A stretch of 64,000 nt of DNA from Candidatus Omnitrophota bacterium (GCA_029261065.1 JAJDCB010000023.1:39682-103681); one strand, 5' to 3'. Shown: positions 38,467 to 47,738, counted from the first letter of the stretch. Program-made: numbers and translations. Notes: generated by a model from the sequence alone, not told the origin.

Positions 38467-38495
38467 TTGCATTTTTGAATACAACATTATATACT
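38467..38495 (+). promoter_or_regulatory. sigma70-like promoter (TTGCAT -17 bp- TATACT)
   Basis: The -35 TTGCAT at 38467-38472 and the -10 TATACT at 38490-38495 were read directly, with a 17-nt spacer. It points into the structured region. Confidence 0.45.
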
Positions 38496-38502
38496 TCCAG
38501 TA

Positions 38503-38757
38503 GACAATTTGGTTTTCGTTCATTGGACGAAAAGGCAAACTTGGGGTAACCCAAGGACGTCCCGCATTTGTAGTGCGGGACCCCGTTCACCTTATGAGAA
38601 TAAGAAATGGCGGGGCAAAACTAGAGGGTCCTATTAAGCGATAGGATAGCCAGACTGGCACTAAAAAAGGTGCTAGACTCCTTTAATAAGGAGTTGCCGA
38701 ATCTGTGGTAGAAGGTATTTAGGCCTATTCTTTTATTTAAAGGAATAGGTTTTTTTA
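38503..38757 (+). ncRNA. candidate small RNA or 5' leader (structured ~250-nt transcript between promoter and terminator)
   Basis: Contains GC hairpin GTCCCGCATTTGTAGTGCGGGAC (38559-38581), ACTCCTT-TAATAA-GGAGT, and a terminal hairpin CCTATTC-...-GAATAGG followed by T7 (38722-38757). No ORF with an RBS. No match to tmRNA/RNase P/SRP motifs that I can see. Confidence 0.3.
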
Positions 38758-38901
38758 TTAAGGGCTTTTGATAAGGAGCCTAACGTGTTAAACCAAATGA
38801 AATTTAATTGTCGGATGAGAATTAGAAAGGAAGAGAACTGTCTCTTCCTTTTTTTTATTTTGATAGAGAGATTGAAAATGTTGATAAACGGAGGATTTAA
38901 G

Positions 38902-40947
38902 ATGAAAAAATATGTTTCTGTATGGGCCATTATCATGTTTCTCGCAGTACCGAGTGTTGCAACTGCAATGGAGGAAGTAAAATTTATTCAAGCCGTTGAC
39001 CCGGGGTTTGTTCAACCCGTAGATACTGACGTTTCGCAAGCAGGAGATTTTTACGTGTTGGATCGCAAGGCCTCAAAAGTTTACGTGTTTGATAAGGAAG
39101 GAAAATTTCAATGGGGTTTTGGAGATCGTGGATTTGCTTTAGGTAAGATGTCTTTGCCTAATTCCCTGGCGATTTCGCTAAAGGGAAATGTTGTTATAGC
39201 AGACACAGGTAATTATCGGGCACAAGTATTTAATCGTAATGGACAAATTTTGTTTGAGTTGGGAAATAAAGGGACTTTGCCAGGTGAGTTTAAAAATGCA
39301 ACAAGTGTGGCTGTAGATCCTTTAGAAAATATCTATGTCGCAGATACGGAGTTAAACCGCATTTCTCAGTTTAGCCCTAAAGGAGTTTTCTTAAAGGTCA
39401 TGAATTTGGAATATAAGCCGATGGATTTAGCGTTTGATAAACAAGGAGCTATGTATGTGCTTTTGTCAGAGGCTGGTAAGATCGTCAAATATTCTATTGC
39501 AGGTGATGAGTTAAAGGAAATTACTTACTATCAAGACAAAGACAACGTGCTTGCCTCAACAGTGGGAATGACGGTGGATTCAAAGGGTGACATTTATCTT
39601 GTTGAACATAATAAACAAAGCATTAAGAAAATCGATCATAAGTCTCAGTTATTATTTTCTTTTGGTTCTCAGGGAGTAGGCAAAGGGCAATTTAACCATC
39701 CATTAGGAATATCAGCAGATGATTTAGGTAAAATTTATATCGCGGATTCTGCCAATAAAAGAGTACAGGTTTTAGAAATAAATGGAAGCACAAAACCAGA
39801 ATTGGCACAGGCCGTTTATTTGCGACCAGTTATTGATTATCAAAAAAGCCTTTCTGCTAATGATTCGATATCTGATGTCGATTATGTTCCCAACAAAGGG
39901 TTATATGCCTTATCGAATGAAAAAGGATATATTATTGTTAAAGGAGAACTTAATCAATTAATTGGTGACTCAAGTGATGAAAAGTTACATTTAAGCAATC
40001 CAAAAGCAATCCATGTGATGGATGATGGGCGTATGTTAGTAGCTGATACGGGTCATCATCGATTGAAGTTTCTTAAAACGGATGGTACTCATGATTATAC
40101 GTTTGGAAATAAAGGTGATCAAGATGGCGAATTTAATGCTCTTGAAGGTGTAGCCTCAGATTCAAAAGGGTATATCTATGTCGCTGATACAAACAATAAT
40201 CGTATCCAGATGTTTAATAGTGATGGCATTTATTTATCTTCTTTTGGTAGAAAGACGGAAGTATTAGATGATGCTAATCCAATGGGAGGAACTTTTCTGC
40301 ATCCAAAAGATTTGGCTTTTAATTCGAAAGATCATCTATACGTCTTAGATTATAAAAATAAGAGGATTCAAATCTTTGATGATCAGAAGATCTTTATTAA
40401 AGAAATAGGTGGGGCTCGCGATTTGGTAAAATTTTTAGAACCCATCGATATTGCGATTGATAACAACGATTATCTTTATGTAGCCGATCGTGGAGAACAC
40501 AATATTAAAGTGTTTGATCATGAAGGCCAATTAGTTCTTACCTTTGGATCCAATGGAAAAGGTCCAAGTCATTTTCCTGCGCTTTCAGCTATTGCTAGCT
40601 GGGAAGGGCAAATTTACGTTGCCAATAAAAATTTAGATGATATTGCTGTGTTCGCTTTTCAACCAAATAACACTATGAAAAAAGAACGCGTGTATATCAC
40701 AAAAATATCATTGCCATTACTCATGGATAACGCTACAGAAGAAATTAAACAGACAATGGCAAAGAAGTTGACGTTTGAAAATATCAGAAAAGAGTTATCA
40801 CAGAAACTAAATGTATCAGAGGACATATTAAATCAAGTTATTAAAGTAGAGGCTGAGGAATATTTAGGCGATGGAAGGTTAAAGTTGACTGTAAGTGCTC
40901 CTAAGGTTTTGCGAATGACTAAGACAGAAGTAGAGCCTATACAATAA
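38902..40947 (+). CDS. secreted NHL-repeat (six-bladed beta-propeller) protein
   Basis: ACGGAGGA RBS; signal peptide MKKYVSVWAIIMFLAVPSVATA. At least 8 NHL-type repeats (GxFxxPxGxAxDxxGxIYVADxxNxRIQxF, e.g. GEFNALEGVASDSKGYIYVADTNNNRIQMF). The 38785 start in the ORF track is an unsupported upstream extension. Confidence 0.75.
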   Translation: MKKYVSVWAIIMFLAVPSVATAMEEVKFIQAVDPGFVQPVDTDVSQAGDFYVLDRKASKVYVFDKEGKFQWGFGDRGFALGKMSLPNSLAISLKGNVVIADTGNYRAQVFNRNGQILFELGNKGTLPGEFKNATSVAVDPLENIYVADTELNRISQFSPKGVFLKVMNLEYKPMDLAFDKQGAMYVLLSEAGKIVKYSIAGDELKEITYYQDKDNVLASTVGMTVDSKGDIYLVEHNKQSIKKIDHKSQLLFSFGSQGVGKGQFNHPLGISADDLGKIYIADSANKRVQVLEINGSTKPELAQAVYLRPVIDYQKSLSANDSISDVDYVPNKGLYALSNEKGYIIVKGELNQLIGDSSDEKLHLSNPKAIHVMDDGRMLVADTGHHRLKFLKTDGTHDYTFGNKGDQDGEFNALEGVASDSKGYIYVADTNNNRIQMFNSDGIYLSSFGRKTEVLDDANPMGGTFLHPKDLAFNSKDHLYVLDYKNKRIQIFDDQKIFIKEIGGARDLVKFLEPIDIAIDNNDYLYVADRGEHNIKVFDHEGQLVLTFGSNGKGPSHFPALSAIASWEGQIYVANKNLDDIAVFAFQPNNTMKKERVYITKISLPLLMDNATEEIKQTMAKKLTFENIRKELSQKLNVSEDILNQVIKVEAEEYLGDGRLKLTVSAPKVLRMTKTEVEPIQ

Positions 40948-40979: not shown

Positions 40980-43900
40980 ATGAAGACATCGCAGTTAACT
41001 TTAATATTATTATTAGGTTTTGTGATGTCTTCTTTTTTGGGGTGTGATCAATTTCGTCCTCAGGAAAAGGGTCTGGTTATTGTTGATCCAAATTCAGAAG
41101 CAGTTGTTGTTGATGAGCAGGGAGATGAAATTGAAAGTGATTATGTTGATATTGTCGAAACGGTTAAGTCTTCAGAAACTGTTATCTTAAGAGATAACAA
41201 AATATTTACCAAAAATTCAAAGAAAAAATTTATTGAGAAAGATGCATCTCCCGCCATACCTGCAACAAAACAAGGTAACGTTAATAATTTAGAAGACGCT
41301 ATTAAAGAAGATCGTGTACCCACAACAAATTTTCAGTCTAAAGATACGCCTAAAGTTAAAAAAGTCGTTCATGAAAAAAGCATCGATCTCTGCAGTGATC
41401 AAGGATATATCTCCTCAGCCGAATGCCGCCTTTGTAGCGATATTCCAGGAGCTATTTGCAGTGAGACGATTAAATTATCTCATGGGGAGCAATGTTTTGA
41501 ATGTGCCACTCAACAAAAAACTTGCCGAGATTTAGGTTTTTTAAGTAAACGAGAATGTAAGAAATGTAATAAAAATGATGCGACAGAATGTGTATTTAAG
41601 GTAGAGGCGGACAACGGAAAATCTTGTTTTGAATGTGTGGATCGTGCCATCAAGTGTAAAGATTTAGGATTGATGAATTTGGATGAATGCACTTCGTGTG
41701 ACAAAGATCCTAAAATGGAATGCATTGCTGATCAGTTAACTGAGGAAGGGGTTAAGTGTTTTAATTGTGTCATTAAGCCTCAAAAATGTTCACAGCTTGG
41801 TCTCATTGATTTGCCTGGATGCCGTACGTGTCAGGAAGATCCCACAAAAGAATGTAAATCATCTAAGAAAACAAATTATGGGCAACAGTGTTATCAGTGT
41901 TTTGATAAAGAACAGAGTTGCGCGGAAATTAATCAATTAGATGTCTCAGAATGCTCAGGGTGTTTATCTCAGGCAGGTAAGGAATGTATAAAAACAGATA
42001 AAACCAAAGAAGGGTTGCAGTGTTATGGCTGTCAGGATCGTCATGAGTCTTGTGCGCATATAGGTTTGTTAAGCCAAGAGCAATGTGAGTCGTGTGACGC
42101 TAGTGAAAAGACACGCTGTGTTGCTGGACGTCAGACATTACAAGGTGAGTCTTGTTTTTCTTGTGTTAAAAAATCAAAAGATTGTCATGGGCTAGGTTAC
42201 CTTAGTCAAGAAGATTGCAGTATATGTGCTCAAAATCCACAAAAAGAGTGTCAGGCGGAGAGTCAAACAAAAGATGGCGAACAATGTTTCGTTTGTCAGG
42301 ATAAACCACAGCAATGTCAGGATTTGGGATTATTGGTGTCTAATCAATGTGAAGAATGTCAAAAGGATCCTACTAAAGAATGTGTGACCGCATTAAACAC
42401 GCAAGAAGGGCAACCATGTTTTGTTTGTCAGGATAAACCGCAACAGTGTCACGACATCGGTCAATTAGCGTTAGATATGTGTTCTGTTTGTTCGAAAGAT
42501 CCCAATAAGTTATGTTTACCAGGTGATAAAACCGAAGAGGGTGTCCAGTGTTATAACTGTGTCGATAGGCCGCAAGAGTGCAGTGATTTTAATCAACTAA
42601 AATTAGATGAATGTTTATTGTGCGAACAGGACGACAGTAAAAGATGTGTGGCGTATGACAAAACAGAAGAAGAGGTTCAGTGCTTTTTATGTGAGGATAA
42701 ACCGCAAGAGTGTAAAGATTTAGGGTTGTTAGCTCAAGATCAATGTGATTTATGTCAGCAAAATTCAAAGAAGGAATGTAGGGTTGATCAGGTTACAAAT
42801 AGCGGTGTGCAATGTTATTCATGCGCGGATAAACCACAGGAATGTCGGGATCTAGGATTGTTTAGTGAAGATGAATGTGGTTTGTGCGAAGAGAATCCAA
42901 AAAAACAATGTCAGATTGATAAACAAACGAAGGAAGGTGTGTCGTGTTTCATCTGTAAAGATAAGCCAAAGGATTGTTTAGACATTGGGTTATTAAATGA
43001 AGAGGGTTGTCAGATGTGTGAGGGGAATGAACGCAAGGACTGCCAAAAGGATGTTCTTACCGATGCCGGTGTGCAGTGTTATACATGTCAAGATAAGCCA
43101 CAAACTTGTGAAGACTTAGGCTTACTTAATCATGAAGGATGTGGGCGTTGTCAAGAAGATGAAAATACAGAATGTATTTTAGAGGCAAAAACAAATCAAG
43201 GGCAAGGTTGTTATTTGTGTGTAGAAAAATTGCAAGATTGTCAGCAGATTGATCAAATCGATTTATCAGAATGTGCGTCGTGTGAAAAAGATGTAAAAAA
43301 AGAATGCCAGATTGGTCAAAAGACAAAGCAAGGCAAACAATGTTATGAATGTGGAGAGAAGGCGCAAGAATGTCTGGATATAAATTTACTAAGTCTTGAT
43401 GAGTGTTTGGCCTGTGAGAAAGAAGATAATAAAATTTGTCAGCATAAAGATAAAACGAAGGAAGGGGTTCAATGTTATAGCTGTGAAGAGAAACCGCAAA
43501 CGTGTGTAGATTTAGGGTTAATAACGGAAGATGCCTGTGAAGTATGTAATCAGAATACAAGAACAGAATGTCAAGTAGATCAGATGACAAAAGAAGGAGT
43601 GTCTTGTTATTCTTGTCAGCAAAAACCTCAAGAGTGTCGAGATTTAGGGTTGTTTAGTTTGGATGAATGCGCCTCTTGTGAAGAAAATATGCGCAAACAG
43701 TGTCAAGAAGATCAGAAAACAGAAGGTGGGACACAATGTTACATTTGTCAGGACAAACCGCAAGCGTGTCATGACATAGGACTATTGGGAATAGATGAAT
43801 GTCAGCGCTGTGAAAGTCAATCTAATAAAATTTGTCAAGTGGATATCCTTACTGAGACCGGTACGCAATGCTTTACGTGTCAAGATAAGCCGCAAGAATG

Positions 43901-46900
43901 TGAAGACTTGGGGCTTCTTAAACAAGCACAATGTGAAACATGTCAGCGTGATGCGAATAAGGAATGCATGTTAACCGAGAAGACGAATCAAGGCGAGCAA
44001 TGTTTTGTGTGTGTTGAGAAGCCCCAAGATTGTTCACAGCTAAACCAGGTGAGTTTGGAAGAGTGTCAAACATGTAATGCCGATCCTGACAAAGAGTGTC
44101 GCGTAGGTAATAAAACGAAAGAGGGAACGCAATGTTATGAATGTGTAGATAAGCCGCAAGATTGTGCGCAGTTGGAATTGCTGAATTTAGAAGAGTGTTT
44201 TGTTTGCGAGGAAAATTCATCGAAAGAATGCGTATCAACTGTGAAAACAAAAGAAGGGATTCAGTGTTATGGTTGTCAGCAGAAAAAGGAAGAGTGTCGT
44301 GATATAGATTTATTATCAAAAGAGCAATGCGAATTTTGTGATCAGAATGCCAAGACAGAATGTCAGATGGATGCCCAAACAAAGGAGGGCAAGCAATGCT
44401 ATTCTTGTGTTCAAAAACCTCAAACGTGCCATGAGTTAGGGCTTTTTAGTCAGGATGATTGTTTAAGTTGTGAAAATAATAAACGCAAACAGTGTCAAGT
44501 TGATCAAAAGACAACGGATGGAACGCAATGTTTTATTTGTCAAGATAAGCCGCAAGAGTGTAATGATATTGGCTTATTAGATGAACCAGGATGTCAAGCC
44601 TGTGATGATAATCCAAACAAAGAATGTCAGGTAGATATTCAGACAGAAAATGGGGTGCAATGTTATACGTGTAAGGAAAAAGTTCAAGGGTGTGAACAAT
44701 TAGGATTTTTGAGCCAATCTCAATGCATGAGTTGTGAGGAAGATGGGCAGAATGAATGTGTTGGTAGTGATAAGACAGCGACTGGAGATCAATGTTATGT
44801 TTGTGTTGAAAAACCGCAATCGTGTGTGGAGCTTGATCAAGTTGGTTTGGAAGAATGTCAATCATGCGAAGCTGAAGATGGCAAAGAGTGCCATGTTGGT
44901 AACAAAACCAAAGAAGGACGACAATGTTATGTATGTGCTGATAAACCTCAAGAGTGTCACGACTTGGATTTAATTAATTTGGATGAATGTTTATCGTGTG
45001 AAGAAGATAGCAACATGAAATGTAACAGTAAAGGAAAAACGCAAGGTGGTATCCAGTGTTACGCCTGTGAAGAAAAGAAACAAGAGTGTCGTGATTTAGG
45101 ATTTTTAGCTTCAGATCAATGTGAGTTTTGTAATAAAAATGATAAAACGGAATGTCAAGAAAGTGAAAAAACAAAAAGTGGTGAGTTATGTTTCAGTTGT
45201 GTCATGAAACCTCAAACATGTCACGGTCTTGGGTTGTTTAGTTTAGATGATTGTCAAACATGCGAAAGTAATCCGCGTAAACAATGCCAGGCTGATCAAA
45301 TGACGGATGATGGATCCCAATGTTATATATGTCAAGATAAGCCGCAAAACTGTCGAGATATTGGACTGTTAGGCGAGGATGGATGTCAATTATGTGAGAA
45401 AAATAATAAGACATGTCAGGAAGATATATTAACGGAATCGGGCGTTCAGTGTTTTAGTTGTAAAGATAAACGAATGACGTGTGATGATTTGGGGCTACTT
45501 GGCCAATCTGATTGTAAAACGTGTGAGCATGATGCGAATAAGGAATGCATGCTATCCGAAAAAACGAACGATGGCGAACAATGTTTTGTCTGTGCCGAGA
45601 AGCCCCAAGATTGTTCTCAGTTAGATCAGATTAATTTGAGAGACTGTCAATCCTGTGAAAGCGACTCCTCGAAAGAATGTCGTGTTGGTAATAAGACGAA
45701 AGAAGGACGGCAGTGTTATGGATGTGTTGATAAACCACAAGAATGCGCGCAATTAGAACAGATAACGTTAGATGAATGTTTATCCTGCGAAGAAGATCCC
45801 AATAAAAAATGTATGACAAAAGATAAAACGCGTGAGGGCGTGCAATGCTACGCGTGTGAAGATAAGAAAAAAGAATGTCGAGATTTAGGCTTATTCTCCG
45901 AGGAACAATGTTCTTTCTGCCAACAGAATTCAAACACGGAATGTCAAGCTGTTGAAACAACACCTGATTCATTAACATGTTTCTCTTGTGTAGAAAAACC
46001 ACAAACGTGTCATGGTCTGGGTCTTTATAACCAAGAAAATTGTCAGAAGTGTGAAAGTAATCCACGTAAACAATGTCAGGCGGATCAAAAGACAAAAAGT
46101 GGAGAGCCGTGTTTTATTTGTCAGGATAAACCGCTTGAGTGTGAGGATATAGGTCTTCTAGATGAAGAGGGGTGTCGCGTTTGCCAAGATGGTTTGGGTA
46201 AGGTTTGTCAAAAAGATATTCTAACTGAGAATGGCGTGCAATGTTTTACTTGCGAAGAAAAACCGCAAGAGTGTCCGGATTTAGGTCTGTTAAGTTCAGA
46301 GGGATGTGCAGAGTGTCAAAACGATTTAACCAAGGATTGTTTACTAGCTCAGAAAACAAATCAAGGAGAAGAATGTTTCTTATGTGTGGATAAACCTCAA
46401 ACATGCCAAGGCATTGGTCAATTAAATTTAGACGAATGTCAAACGTGTGAATCAGATGGAACTAAAGAATGTTTGGCAGGAAATAAGACAAAAGAATCTC
46501 GTCAGTGTTACACATGTGAAGATAAAGCACAAACGTGTGAAAGTATAGATTTGATCAATTTAGATGAATGTCAAAATTGTGATGAACAGCCAAACATGGC
46601 CTGCAAAACGTCTCAGAGAACAAAGGAAGGGCGTCAATGTTATTCATGTGAAGAACGGGCTCCAGAGTGTCTAGACTTTGGGCTCTTATCACAAGAACAA
46701 TGTCAGCAATGTAATCAGAATCCATCCACGGAATGTCGAAAAGAAAAGAGTATGACATCAGGAGAAGGATGTTATGCCTGTGTGGATAAACCACAAGAAT
46801 GTCAGGACATTGGACTACTTAATCAAGAAGATTGTTCGCAATGTGAAAAAGATAAGCGAAAAGAATGTCGAGCTGATCAAACAACAAAAGAAGGCGTTCA

Positions 46901-47738
46901 ATGTTTTGTTTGTCAAAAGAAGCCAAAACAATGTGGAGATATTGGATTACTTGCGAAAGATCAATGTGTTCAGTGTGAAAAGAATGGAAGAAAGCAATGT
47001 CAGCAAGATTCGAAAACAAAATCAGGTGAGCAATGTTATGTGTGTGAAGATCGGCCTGAGGCGTGTGACGATTTAGGTTTGATTAATGACAAGCAATGTA
47101 AAACATGTGAAAGCAATCCAAAGGCCAAATGTGTGGCCACAGCTAAGACGAATAATTCTGATCAGTGCTTTAGATGTGTGATGCAAGAACAACAGTGTTC
47201 TGATATTGGACTCTCTGATTTATCAGAATGTTCAGCTTGTGAGAGTGATTCTAATAAACAATGTTTGGCTGCAAAAAAGACTGATAGTGGTATTCAATGT
47301 TATTCTTGTCAAGAGAAACCGAAGGGTTGTGCGAGTCTTTCACAACTAAGTTTGGCGGAATGTAATTCTTGTGAGACCGATGATAATAAGACATGTCAAC
47401 AAGCCAAGAAAACAGCCGATGGGGAGCAGTGTTATTCTTGTGAAGATAAACCACAACAACAACCAAGCCAGGCTTGCACAGATATTGGTCAGTCCAGTTT
47501 TGAACATTGTAAAGATTCATGTCCCGGGGAATGTTTGGAGGCTAGCTCCACAAAAAGTGCTGAACAATGTTACCGCTGTAAGGTTCCATTAGGAGCTCGA
47601 GAATGTCTGGATTATGAATATTTTCAAGATTGTAATTCTTGTACAGCAGATGAAAAATGTGCCAAGACAGGGTTGAGGTTGTTTGAAGGTAGTGGGCGTG
47701 GCGTTCCTTTAACCTGTTATACTTGCCGCCCGAAGTAA
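40980..47738 (+). CDS. giant cysteine-rich tandem-module lipoprotein (no recognised family)
   Basis: 2252 aa; TGGAG RBS; signal peptide with lipobox FLGC. About 45 tandem 44-aa modules with invariant spacing C-x2-C-x6-C-x10-C-x2-C-x7-C and core [DE]KPQxCxDLGLL. Very rich in K/E/D/Q; about 270 Cys in total. Confidence 0.8.
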   Translation: MKTSQLTLILLLGFVMSSFLGCDQFRPQEKGLVIVDPNSEAVVVDEQGDEIESDYVDIVETVKSSETVILRDNKIFTKNSKKKFIEKDASPAIPATKQGNVNNLEDAIKEDRVPTTNFQSKDTPKVKKVVHEKSIDLCSDQGYISSAECRLCSDIPGAICSETIKLSHGEQCFECATQQKTCRDLGFLSKRECKKCNKNDATECVFKVEADNGKSCFECVDRAIKCKDLGLMNLDECTSCDKDPKMECIADQLTEEGVKCFNCVIKPQKCSQLGLIDLPGCRTCQEDPTKECKSSKKTNYGQQCYQCFDKEQSCAEINQLDVSECSGCLSQAGKECIKTDKTKEGLQCYGCQDRHESCAHIGLLSQEQCESCDASEKTRCVAGRQTLQGESCFSCVKKSKDCHGLGYLSQEDCSICAQNPQKECQAESQTKDGEQCFVCQDKPQQCQDLGLLVSNQCEECQKDPTKECVTALNTQEGQPCFVCQDKPQQCHDIGQLALDMCSVCSKDPNKLCLPGDKTEEGVQCYNCVDRPQECSDFNQLKLDECLLCEQDDSKRCVAYDKTEEEVQCFLCEDKPQECKDLGLLAQDQCDLCQQNSKKECRVDQVTNSGVQCYSCADKPQECRDLGLFSEDECGLCEENPKKQCQIDKQTKEGVSCFICKDKPKDCLDIGLLNEEGCQMCEGNERKDCQKDVLTDAGVQCYTCQDKPQTCEDLGLLNHEGCGRCQEDENTECILEAKTNQGQGCYLCVEKLQDCQQIDQIDLSECASCEKDVKKECQIGQKTKQGKQCYECGEKAQECLDINLLSLDECLACEKEDNKICQHKDKTKEGVQCYSCEEKPQTCVDLGLITEDACEVCNQNTRTECQVDQMTKEGVSCYSCQQKPQECRDLGLFSLDECASCEENMRKQCQEDQKTEGGTQCYICQDKPQACHDIGLLGIDECQRCESQSNKICQVDILTETGTQCFTCQDKPQECEDLGLLKQAQCETCQRDANKECMLTEKTNQGEQCFVCVEKPQDCSQLNQVSLEECQTCNADPDKECRVGNKTKEGTQCYECVDKPQDCAQLELLNLEECFVCEENSSKECVSTVKTKEGIQCYGCQQKKEECRDIDLLSKEQCEFCDQNAKTECQMDAQTKEGKQCYSCVQKPQTCHELGLFSQDDCLSCENNKRKQCQVDQKTTDGTQCFICQDKPQECNDIGLLDEPGCQACDDNPNKECQVDIQTENGVQCYTCKEKVQGCEQLGFLSQSQCMSCEEDGQNECVGSDKTATGDQCYVCVEKPQSCVELDQVGLEECQSCEAEDGKECHVGNKTKEGRQCYVCADKPQECHDLDLINLDECLSCEEDSNMKCNSKGKTQGGIQCYACEEKKQECRDLGFLASDQCEFCNKNDKTECQESEKTKSGELCFSCVMKPQTCHGLGLFSLDDCQTCESNPRKQCQADQMTDDGSQCYICQDKPQNCRDIGLLGEDGCQLCEKNNKTCQEDILTESGVQCFSCKDKRMTCDDLGLLGQSDCKTCEHDANKECMLSEKTNDGEQCFVCAEKPQDCSQLDQINLRDCQSCESDSSKECRVGNKTKEGRQCYGCVDKPQECAQLEQITLDECLSCEEDPNKKCMTKDKTREGVQCYACEDKKKECRDLGLFSEEQCSFCQQNSNTECQAVETTPDSLTCFSCVEKPQTCHGLGLYNQENCQKCESNPRKQCQADQKTKSGEPCFICQDKPLECEDIGLLDEEGCRVCQDGLGKVCQKDILTENGVQCFTCEEKPQECPDLGLLSSEGCAECQNDLTKDCLLAQKTNQGEECFLCVDKPQTCQGIGQLNLDECQTCESDGTKECLAGNKTKESRQCYTCEDKAQTCESIDLINLDECQNCDEQPNMACKTSQRTKEGRQCYSCEERAPECLDFGLLSQEQCQQCNQNPSTECRKEKSMTSGEGCYACVDKPQECQDIGLLNQEDCSQCEKDKRKECRADQTTKEGVQCFVCQKKPKQCGDIGLLAKDQCVQCEKNGRKQCQQDSKTKSGEQCYVCEDRPEACDDLGLINDKQCKTCESNPKAKCVATAKTNNSDQCFRCVMQEQQCSDIGLSDLSECSACESDSNKQCLAAKKTDSGIQCYSCQEKPKGCASLSQLSLAECNSCETDDNKTCQQAKKTADGEQCYSCEDKPQQQPSQACTDIGQSSFEHCKDSCPGECLEASSTKSAEQCYRCKVPLGARECLDYEYFQDCNSCTADEKCAKTGLRLFEGSGRGVPLTCYTCRPK
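41470..47490 (+). repeat. Intragenic tandem repeat: 132-bp unit (one 129-bp copy) with a higher-order super-repeat of 6 units (792 bp)
   Basis: Protein periodicity read directly. Antisense stop-free artefact ORFs at 43126 and 43918 are exactly 792 bp apart. Comparable modules 12 units apart (e.g. 43930-44040 vs 45510-45620) look about 80-85% identical by eye. Confidence 0.75.

Follow-up and report, generated by a model that had tools for sequence, protein, structure and literature searches.

A c-di-GMP-I type riboswitch with inserted two-hairpin modules predicted in the leader of an Omnitrophota NHL and cysteine-rich lipoprotein operon

Riboswitches of the c-di-GMP-I (GEMM-I) type (RF01051, Rfam clan CL00126), for which the Vibrio cholerae Vc2 RNA is the structural reference, combine a typical P2 hairpin, an A-rich linker, a P3 helix with an AG bulge and a GCCGAA tail. 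They lie in 5' untranslated regions with an intrinsic terminator and are associated with genes for secreted or surface proteins, pilins and signalling (PMC1950547; PMC6140456). Their bases G20 and C92 read both guanines of cyclic di-GMP (c-di-GMP) (PMC6140456). Here, we analyze 64,000 nucleotides (nt) of DNA from a Candidatus Omnitrophota bacterium (GCA_029261065.1 JAJDCB010000023.1:39682-103681), a stretch referred to below as the window, in which positions 38467-38757 resemble the described systems in all these respects, including equivalents of G20, A47 and C92 and the kind of genes that follow. We propose, with a probability of about 80% judged from sequence comparison, that this region is the 5' leader of an operon encoding an NHL-repeat protein and a cysteine-rich (Cys-rich) lipoprotein and that it contains a riboswitch of the c-di-GMP-I type. 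An earlier note on the window had left the choice between an independent small RNA (sRNA) and a terminator-containing, riboswitch-like leader of the downstream operon; the second suggestion agrees with our results, as a c-di-GMP-I type aptamer and a terminator are conserved before the same gene pair.

Tandem c-di-GMP-I riboswitches are common, with 347 doublets and 12 triplets catalogued and a Bacillus thuringiensis triplet tested (PMC9481103). Among the related loci compared here, L011, L012, L013, L016 and L028 likewise carry a pair of complete units before the same operon, each unit an aptamer with its terminator. Two terminators also persist in the window, which, unlike the tandem systems, has an aptamer in the first unit only, and L028 combines a plain aptamer (L028-1) with one carrying the insertion described below (L028-2). 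Variants hidden within the family are also known, such as the c-AMP-GMP (GEMM-Ib) riboswitches of Geobacter, in which G20 is changed to A (PMC7266159, PMC6140456). The window RNA shares their fold family, but its pocket is unchanged and the difference is architectural. What separates it from described c-di-GMP-I riboswitches is a 56-nt module in P2 (hairpins A and B), a 40-nt module in basal P3 (hairpins C and D), a 5' hairpin that competes with P1, and a score below the Rfam gathering cut-off.

The aptamer was delimited with the help of R1, a covariance model built from nine other aptamers with the A/B module, the window excluded. Its parts are:

38524-38705, plus strand: whole aptamer, with P1, P2 with a GUAA loop, an A-rich J2/3 and P3
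38524-38558, plus strand: 5' part of the aptamer, a weak Rfam match aligned by R1 at high posterior probability
38615-38653, plus strand: J2/3 and P3, from the R1 alignment and comparison with the L011, L012 and L028 aptamers
38694-38705, plus strand: 3' end of the aptamer, which fits the family consensus cuGCCGAAu, with pairing checked

The P1 5' strand UGGACG (38524-38529) is followed by J1/2 (AAAA) and by G38534, the equivalent of G20. P2 consists of a basal stem of two base pairs (bp), formed by GC at 38535-38536 and closed by GC at 38615-38616, an AAA internal loop, and a 6-bp upper stem (CUUGGG-GUAA-CCCAAG, 38540-38555) followed by GAC (38556-38558), its 3' side being broken by the A/B module. 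The first hairpin of GEMM-I, with 2-bp and 6-bp stems, a 3-nt internal loop between them and a GNRA cap, is therefore present. J2/3 is AA, within the A-rich linker GC-AAAA-CU (38615-38622), and A38617 occupies the position of A47, a column that is an invariant A in 9/9 sequences. A38617 would presumably play the part of A47, the intercalating adenine of the Vc2 structures. The P3 5' strand AACU-AGA-GG-GUCC (38619-38631) leads through an extended stem and loop to the 3' strand GGAU-AG-CC-AG (38644-38653), and R1 aligns the core GGGUCC...GGAUAGCC with its AG bulge (38626-38651). Basal P3 is finished by UU (A38619-U38695 and A38620-U38694), J3/1 is GC with C38697 as the C92 equivalent, and the P1 3' strand is CG-AA-UCUG. 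The tail GCCGAA (38696-38701) stands 45 nt after GGAUAGCC, an arrangement found once where 0.01 would be expected by chance.

The core can be summarized as ...UGGACGAAAAGGCAAAC-CUUGGG-GUAA-CCCAAG-GAC, 56 nt, GCAAAACUAGAGGGUCC...GGAUAGCCAG, 40 nt, UUGCCGAAUCUG, and apart from these two inserted blocks it is the same aptamer as in L012 or L028-1. The aptamers in the leaders of NHL homologues that pass Rfam gathering align base for base with the window outside the inserts. G38534 and C38697 were assigned to the ligand contacts by alignment to the Rfam consensus, to the relatives and to Vc2 numbering, and the G20 equivalent is a G, not the A of sensors of cyclic GMP-AMP (cGAMP). The aptamer also has the position of a 5' untranslated element with an expression platform, between a promoter (38467-38495) and a terminator (38721-38756) and ahead of a gene that starts at 38902.

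The Rfam/Infernal scan suggested by the earlier note was negative at gathering thresholds, which returned no family anywhere in the window, and positive below them. A permissive scan of the spacer matched 38525-38581 to the 5' half of c-di-GMP-I-GGC (RF03167), a member of CL00126, at 26.2 bits against a cut-off of 59 (E = 5e-4), through the motif ACGAAAAGGCAAAC-stem-GUAA-stem-GGACG. R1 matches the window once in 64 kb, at 38522-38670, with 60.1 bits and E ~1e-18, and aligns P2, hairpins A and B, the basal pairs, J2/3 and P3 at high posterior probability; it misaligns the 3' tail because of the C/D insertion. The window falls below the gathering score because two inserts interrupt the aptamer. 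The window RNA shows the sequence and structure features that define GEMM-I, apart from its ambiguous P1 and its low Rfam score; by homology, it is a member of the c-di-GMP-I clan and a new structural variant within it.

The first of the two inserts is not particular to the window. Its hairpins are:

38559-38581, plus strand: hairpin A, GTCCCGCATTTGTAGTGCGGGAC, the GC-rich hairpin to which the earlier note had pointed (RNAfold; same site in 10 other aptamers)
38582-38614, plus strand: hairpin B, CCCGUU...GGCGGG, adjoining hairpin A on one side and the 3' GC of basal P2 on the other (RNAfold)

The 56-nt insert directly follows the internal-loop GAC and precedes the G with which the 2-bp basal stem closes; hairpin A joins hairpin B, and each joins its flank, without a single unpaired nucleotide (z = -4.5). 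As the A/B type we define aptamers whose core is canonical except for exactly two abutting hairpins that separate GGAC from GCAAA, as is the case here. The module occupies the identical site in 11 aptamers from nine loci (the window, L019, both copies of L016, L020-L025 and L028-2). A metagenome pattern scan that allowed any 40-70 nt at this site recovered eight loci, six of them distinct, with two hairpins in every one. Folded by RNAfold, the insert has exactly two exterior stems and zero unpaired ends in 10/11 cases, whereas at most 0.8% of shuffles do likewise. The hairpins are diverse in sequence (GUCCCGC.., GUUUCGC.., CCCUGUA.., CCCGGA.., CCCCGU.., UCUCAG.., CUCCCGC..), and their loops and lengths vary, with no loop conservation.

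The comparative alignment called for by the earlier note revealed compensatory changes. In a loop-trimmed alignment of the nine non-window sequences, changes on both sides of a pair occur at 6/6 positions of helix A, 4/5 of helix B and 5/6 of P2. Overall, 97% of cells are paired, against 30-47% with slid partners (about 30-48% with the second alignment described next included), and the figure reaches 100% for the closing pairs of hairpin A. A model-derived alignment of 18 real aptamers gave the same covariation figures. These counts lean towards structure, because the individual fold of every sequence set its hairpin bounds, and the second alignment had been fitted to the model; the slid-partner control and the topology shuffle test are the independent checks. 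L028-1 shares the P2 of the window (CUUGGGGUAACCCAAGGAC) and GCAAAACUA exactly and has no module, which identifies the module as a discrete indel. From these sequence comparisons, the A/B module is a heritable feature of an aptamer subclass.

Hairpin A had been thought to resemble palindromic repeat units of the genome. That resemblance was not borne out: as a candidate repeat of the repetitive extragenic palindromic (REP) kind it is single-copy in the 64-kb window at up to 3 mismatches, and blastn-short gave chance words only. Neither the A/B insert, the C/D insert, the 5' hairpin nor any other part of the leader is repeated within the window. Hairpin A is instead one half of a conserved module with compensatory changes.

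The A/B subclass also explains a gap in annotation. Plain aptamers from the same loci (two each in L011 and L012, and those of L017, L028-1 and L029) pass Rfam gathering in CL00126 in 7/7 cases, scoring 60-67 bits where 59 are required. Of the 11 A/B-type aptamers, none does; they come closest with 47.2 bits where 59 are needed and with 33.1 where 35 are needed, and two go unreported even at E <= 0.1. The subclass is thus systematically missed by the curated thresholds of Rfam. The best-scoring Rfam model for the window and its canonical relatives is RF03167, the only clan member reported for the aptamers of L011, L012, L017, L028 and L029, and like RF03167 they have a short P3 without the tetraloop receptor. 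Unlike RF03167, the window and all relatives carry the canonical-pocket A after ACGC (GCAAA) where the consensus of that family has G (GCGAA). The name GGC refers to pocket nucleotides, and with an A in this place ordinary c-di-GMP specificity is to be expected. Since aptamers with the canonical A score above RF03167 gathering, automatic annotation would label ordinary-pocket aptamers as the GGC variant.

It could be argued that the four-way junction created by the module changes what is sensed, be it another cyclic dinucleotide or a protein partner, which would make the A/B type a distinct class. Two base pairs separate the module from the ligand-binding junction, selection maintains it, all A/B-type aptamers fall under the Rfam thresholds, and the closest Rfam model is a variant family, RF03167, and not RF01051. 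However, the equivalents of G20, A47 and C92 are canonical and the A20 of cGAMP sensors is absent (PMC6140456). Since neither the loops of A and B nor their lengths are conserved, they do not provide a specific surface for docking, and L028 carries module-bearing and module-less aptamers in tandem with near-identical cores. We therefore regard altered specificity as quite improbable. Rather unlikely, too, is the broader proposal that the A/B module is functional in its own right and marks an uncatalogued GEMM-I subclass that differs in affinity, in folding kinetics or in ligand specificity, or that takes a second input, and in which the window copy might be a three-state switch. This copy is the most elaborated example among the sequences compared, having two modules and a 5' hairpin that acts against P1.

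The genes downstream of the leader are:

38902-40947, plus strand: secreted NHL-repeat beta-propeller protein of 681 amino acids (aa) with a signal peptide (Pfam NHL, 3e-53), the first gene predicted to be regulated
40980-47738, plus strand: repetitive lipoprotein of 2252 aa with 12.8% Cys and no Pfam domain, the second such gene

The NHL gene starts with ATG at 38902, 7 nt after the ribosome-binding site GGAGG (38890-38894), and the gene upstream of the leader encodes a TerB+DnaJ protein. NHL homologues in the protein database are about 50% identical, belong to Omnitrophota where named, and carry GEMM-I leaders. The best hits of PtsP, another protein encoded in the window, likewise bear Omnitrophota names only, so that the source is a metagenome-assembled genome of this phylum. 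Exact look-ups of the NHL protein and of its 716-aa database version gave no record. In species-representative genomes, the NHL protein had no close relative; the matches were distant NHL proteins of 23-38% identity, all from unrelated phyla. In L011 and L012, two tandem aptamers, each with its own terminator, occupy the equivalent place behind the same promoter. A Cys-rich homologue follows the NHL gene at seven loci (L011, L012, L013, L016, L019, L028 and L029), while the upstream neighbours all differ; L015, with an NHL homologue from Scalinduaceae, has neither the riboswitch nor the Cys-rich partner. That the leader and the two-gene cassette travel together argues for regulation in cis. 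Elsewhere, A/B-type aptamers stand before pilin-like genes, before a gene for a response regulator and before one for a secreted peptidase, and genes for pilins, signalling and secreted or surface proteins are typical GEMM associations (PMC1950547).

This linkage bears directly on the proposal of an independent sRNA. The transcript of about 255 nt might be a stand-alone, trans-acting RNA whose position before the NHL gene is incidental, or a terminated riboswitch that doubles as an sRNA. A promoter of its own, a terminator that looks efficient and ends 145 nt ahead of the gene, and a second terminator downstream would suit such a transcript, and in Listeria, riboswitch transcripts that end at a terminator (SreA/SreB) can act in trans. 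Yet relatives with or without the A/B module are always found in the 5' leader of a gene, be it the NHL and Cys-rich pair or others, whatever lies upstream, and never as a stand-alone gene. The element belongs to a clan of cis-regulatory riboswitches, no conserved single-stranded seed is apparent, and none of the four hairpins A to D has a conserved loop. We consider an sRNA highly improbable.

Some observations concern the gene cassette itself. The Cys-rich partner, which always accompanies the NHL propeller, is also seen at L012 7118-12121 and L013 5136-8082; in different genomes it has between 364 and over 2000 aa. By analogy with GEMM targets in Geobacter it was considered as a multihaem cytochrome, which was ruled out by its 0 CxxCH motifs. 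Within the lipoprotein gene, three minus-strand open reading frames (ORFs) of equal length, 154 aa, occur at 43126, 43918 and 45631 and may reflect its internal DNA repeats. In L028 (1-5975), the pair of plain and A/B-type aptamers is followed by a secretin gene (GspD/PilQ-like) and then by the NHL and Cys-rich genes, an order that ties the cassette to a system for secretion or pili.

Around the aptamer, the leader has the following elements:

38467-38495, plus strand: sigma-70-like promoter, with -35 TTGCAT (38467-38472), a 17-nt spacer and -10 TATACT (38490-38495), read from the sequence
38721-38756, plus strand: terminator 1, the putative expression platform, with a 13-14 bp stem (38721-38752) and U7 (terminator scan; fold z = -4.6)
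38758-38861, plus strand: second leader unit, with a possible P3 remnant (38758-38787) and then terminator-like hairpin 2 (38824-38853 and a T run; scan)

The features that the earlier note had described here all stand at its coordinates. The TTGCAT-17-TATACT promoter is present and the same arrangement recurs in homologous leaders; it was absent from a generic consensus promoter scan because its -35 hexamer agrees at only 3/6 positions. The identical combination precedes the leaders of L013 and L029, with TTGCTT-17-TATACT in L011 and L012 and TTGACA-18-TATACT in L017. TATACTT lies 22-33 nt 5' of the aptamer in eight leaders, including that of the window, and 72 and 79 nt away in two more. Given these recurring hexamers and spacings in the leaders of other genomes, we take the promoter as a phylogenetic footprint, with transcription predicted to start near 38502. 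The several stable hairpins are equally evident, in about 200 nt of strongly structured RNA: 38495-38757 folds at -100.9 kcal/mol, compared to -66.8 +/- 4.6 in dinucleotide shuffles (z = -7.4; 0/200 shuffles equal). A ribosome-binding site followed by a coding frame is indeed missing, as the ORFs that overlap the region between promoter and terminator are mechanical frames of 30-50 aa, none of them credible. ARAGORN found no tRNA or tmRNA. The canonical intrinsic terminator 145 nt before the NHL gene was called by the scan with 14 pairs. Between aptamer and terminator (38705-38722), GUG begins a 5-codon ORF (MVEGI*) 11 nt after the Shine-Dalgarno-like AAGGAG of hairpin D; it is probably meaningless.

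How the leader would respond to its ligand can be proposed from the layout of aptamer and terminator. In most leaders a gap of 4-31 nt separates the aptamer from the terminator that follows, so that the two do not overlap, and the terminator of the window is wholly downstream. The 3' arm of the terminator, GGA(A)UAGG, mimics the P3 3' strand GGAUAGCC, so that the 5' arm can pair with either. In the window, the 5' arm of terminator 1, GCCUAUUC, can pair with the P3 3' strand AUAGGAUAGCC to give a candidate antiterminator. The corresponding duplex amounts to -6 to -14 kcal/mol in most leaders, and L028-2 and L016-1 (the first L016 copy) show matching changes on both antiterminator partners. In the absence of ligand, the terminator 5' arm would invade P3, and the resulting antiterminator would allow read-through; with c-di-GMP bound, P3 and P1 would be locked, terminator 1 would form and transcription would stop. 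As the simplest reading of this layout we lean towards a c-di-GMP-dependent transcription OFF switch, though by no great distance. Energy modelling of the leaders did not settle the sign of regulation. L020 has the opposite layout, with a terminator that overlaps basal P3 and P1, which corresponds to the ON type described in 2007 (PMC1950547).

Two further elements are found in the window copy:

38654-38693, plus strand: C/D module of 40 nt, with hairpins C (38655-38676) and D (38678-38693); fold -17.8 kcal/mol, z = -6.4
38513-38533, plus strand: 5' hairpin UUUUCGUUC-AUU-GGACGAAAA; -6.7 kcal/mol, z = -3.2

The C/D module splits the 3' strand of basal P3 between AG and UU, and GGATAGCC...N...GCCGAA was found once against 0.01 expected. 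The split helix (5' strand AACU) is made of A-U, A-U, C-G and U-A pairs; most relatives read AGCU, and the G-to-A change in the window turns a G-U into an A-U pair. Each two-hairpin insert would turn a continuous helix into a four-way junction, A/B in P2 and C/D in basal P3. Such a junction could let the interrupted helix keep stacking, so that the core still folds, an idea that derives from the fact that all insertions seen come in pairs.

The 5' hairpin results from about 10 extra nt after the promoter relative to L011, L012, L029 and L017, and it buries the P1 5' strand and J1/2. Hairpins unrelated to it bury the same segment in L023 (4090-4106) and in L021 (minus strand, just 5' of the aptamer). 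Such an element accompanies three A/B-type leaders (the window, L023 and L021) and none of the seven plain aptamers, and it may be recurrent.

Other large insertions were observed in both tandem aptamers of L013 (2396-2571 and 2670-2906), from an Omnitrophota metagenome-assembled genome. Both copies have a hairpin of about 50 nt in the P2 5' strand, and the second copy has two CCCCGAC...GUCGGGG hairpins in the P3 5' strand; R1 gives them only 35 and 18 bits. Two-hairpin insertions thus occur elsewhere in these aptamers as well.

Behind terminator 1, relatives have a complete second aptamer and terminator. In the window, no intact second aptamer was found in 38715-38960, where R1 with filters off gave only a 5-bit P3-like trace, namely the 5.2 bits of the faintly P3-like GGGCUUUUGAUAAGGAGCC (38762-38780). 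At L029 (1780-1935), the second leader unit includes GGGAUAGC...ACAGCCAG and ends with the terminator CCUAUUCC...GGGAUAGG. No aptamer is recognised in this unit by R1 or by Rfam, and it may be another strongly diverged or decayed copy.

Several of these properties, in addition to the lack of a gathering-level Rfam match, weigh against a working riboswitch in the window. Canonical P1 is weak, with 6 bp of which 2 are G-U. It can pair (UGGA-CG with CG-AA-UCUG), but in the nearest-neighbour model, which underlies the energies that follow, the 5' hairpin and an outer stem are favoured by about 13 kcal/mol. These two, the outer stem joining approximately 38504-38512 to 38696-38706 with the C92 equivalent included, make up the minimum free energy fold of the whole leader, and as modelled this alternative fold is not ligand-competent. 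Enforcing the full aptamer with P1 costs 24.8 kcal/mol, and enforcing the core without P1 costs 11.8 kcal/mol, compared to 1.6-11.3 in relatives. The antiterminator duplex of the window is weak (-6.4 kcal/mol, z = -0.9). The C/D module has no counterpart in any other sequence compared and thus no support from covariation. Finally, the second aptamer of an ancestral tandem was apparently lost and its terminator kept, and a second terminator without an aptamer is hard to square with efficient expression of the operon.

These points could mean that the leader descends from a tandem c-di-GMP-I riboswitch and has lost ligand sensing through the C/D insertion, the sequestering 5' hairpin and the loss of the second aptamer, leaving a constitutive attenuator or merely a structured leader. 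The two elements unique to this copy, a ligand-incompetent fold about 25 kcal/mol more stable, a second unit reduced to a terminator and a faint P3-like remnant, and Rfam scores far under threshold are all in line with decay. On the other hand, every conserved nucleotide of the core is intact (the G20, A47 and C92 equivalents, the GNRA loop, GGAC, GCAAA, GGGUCC, GGAUAGCC and GCCGAA). The G-to-A change in AAAACU keeps split basal P3 in Watson-Crick pairing with UU, C/D is a clean two-hairpin unit that repeats the solution of the selected A/B module, and the unrelated sequestering hairpins of L023 and L021 suggest tuning rather than decay. Decay is thus unlikely in our view, although a reduced or lost ligand response is an alternative to be taken seriously, and we favor a c-di-GMP-I type riboswitch that may still respond to its ligand.

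The kind of riboswitch described here is well known; what is new is the recurrent A/B module, the doubly decorated copy of the window and the blind spot of Rfam. The full-text literature searched, whose coverage was incomplete, contained no report of a four-way-junction GEMM-I or of a GEMM-I from Omnitrophica. The insertion of hairpins in pairs, never singly, suggests as a general rule that four-way junctions may be the tolerated way to enlarge a riboswitch core. Because the A/B subclass escapes Rfam, c-di-GMP regulons compiled with it are incomplete in these lineages. For the organism, a 290-nt unannotated region is given a specific predicted function, and c-di-GMP is predicted to control a conserved operon for a secreted NHL propeller and a giant Cys-rich lipoprotein in the uncultured phylum Omnitrophota.

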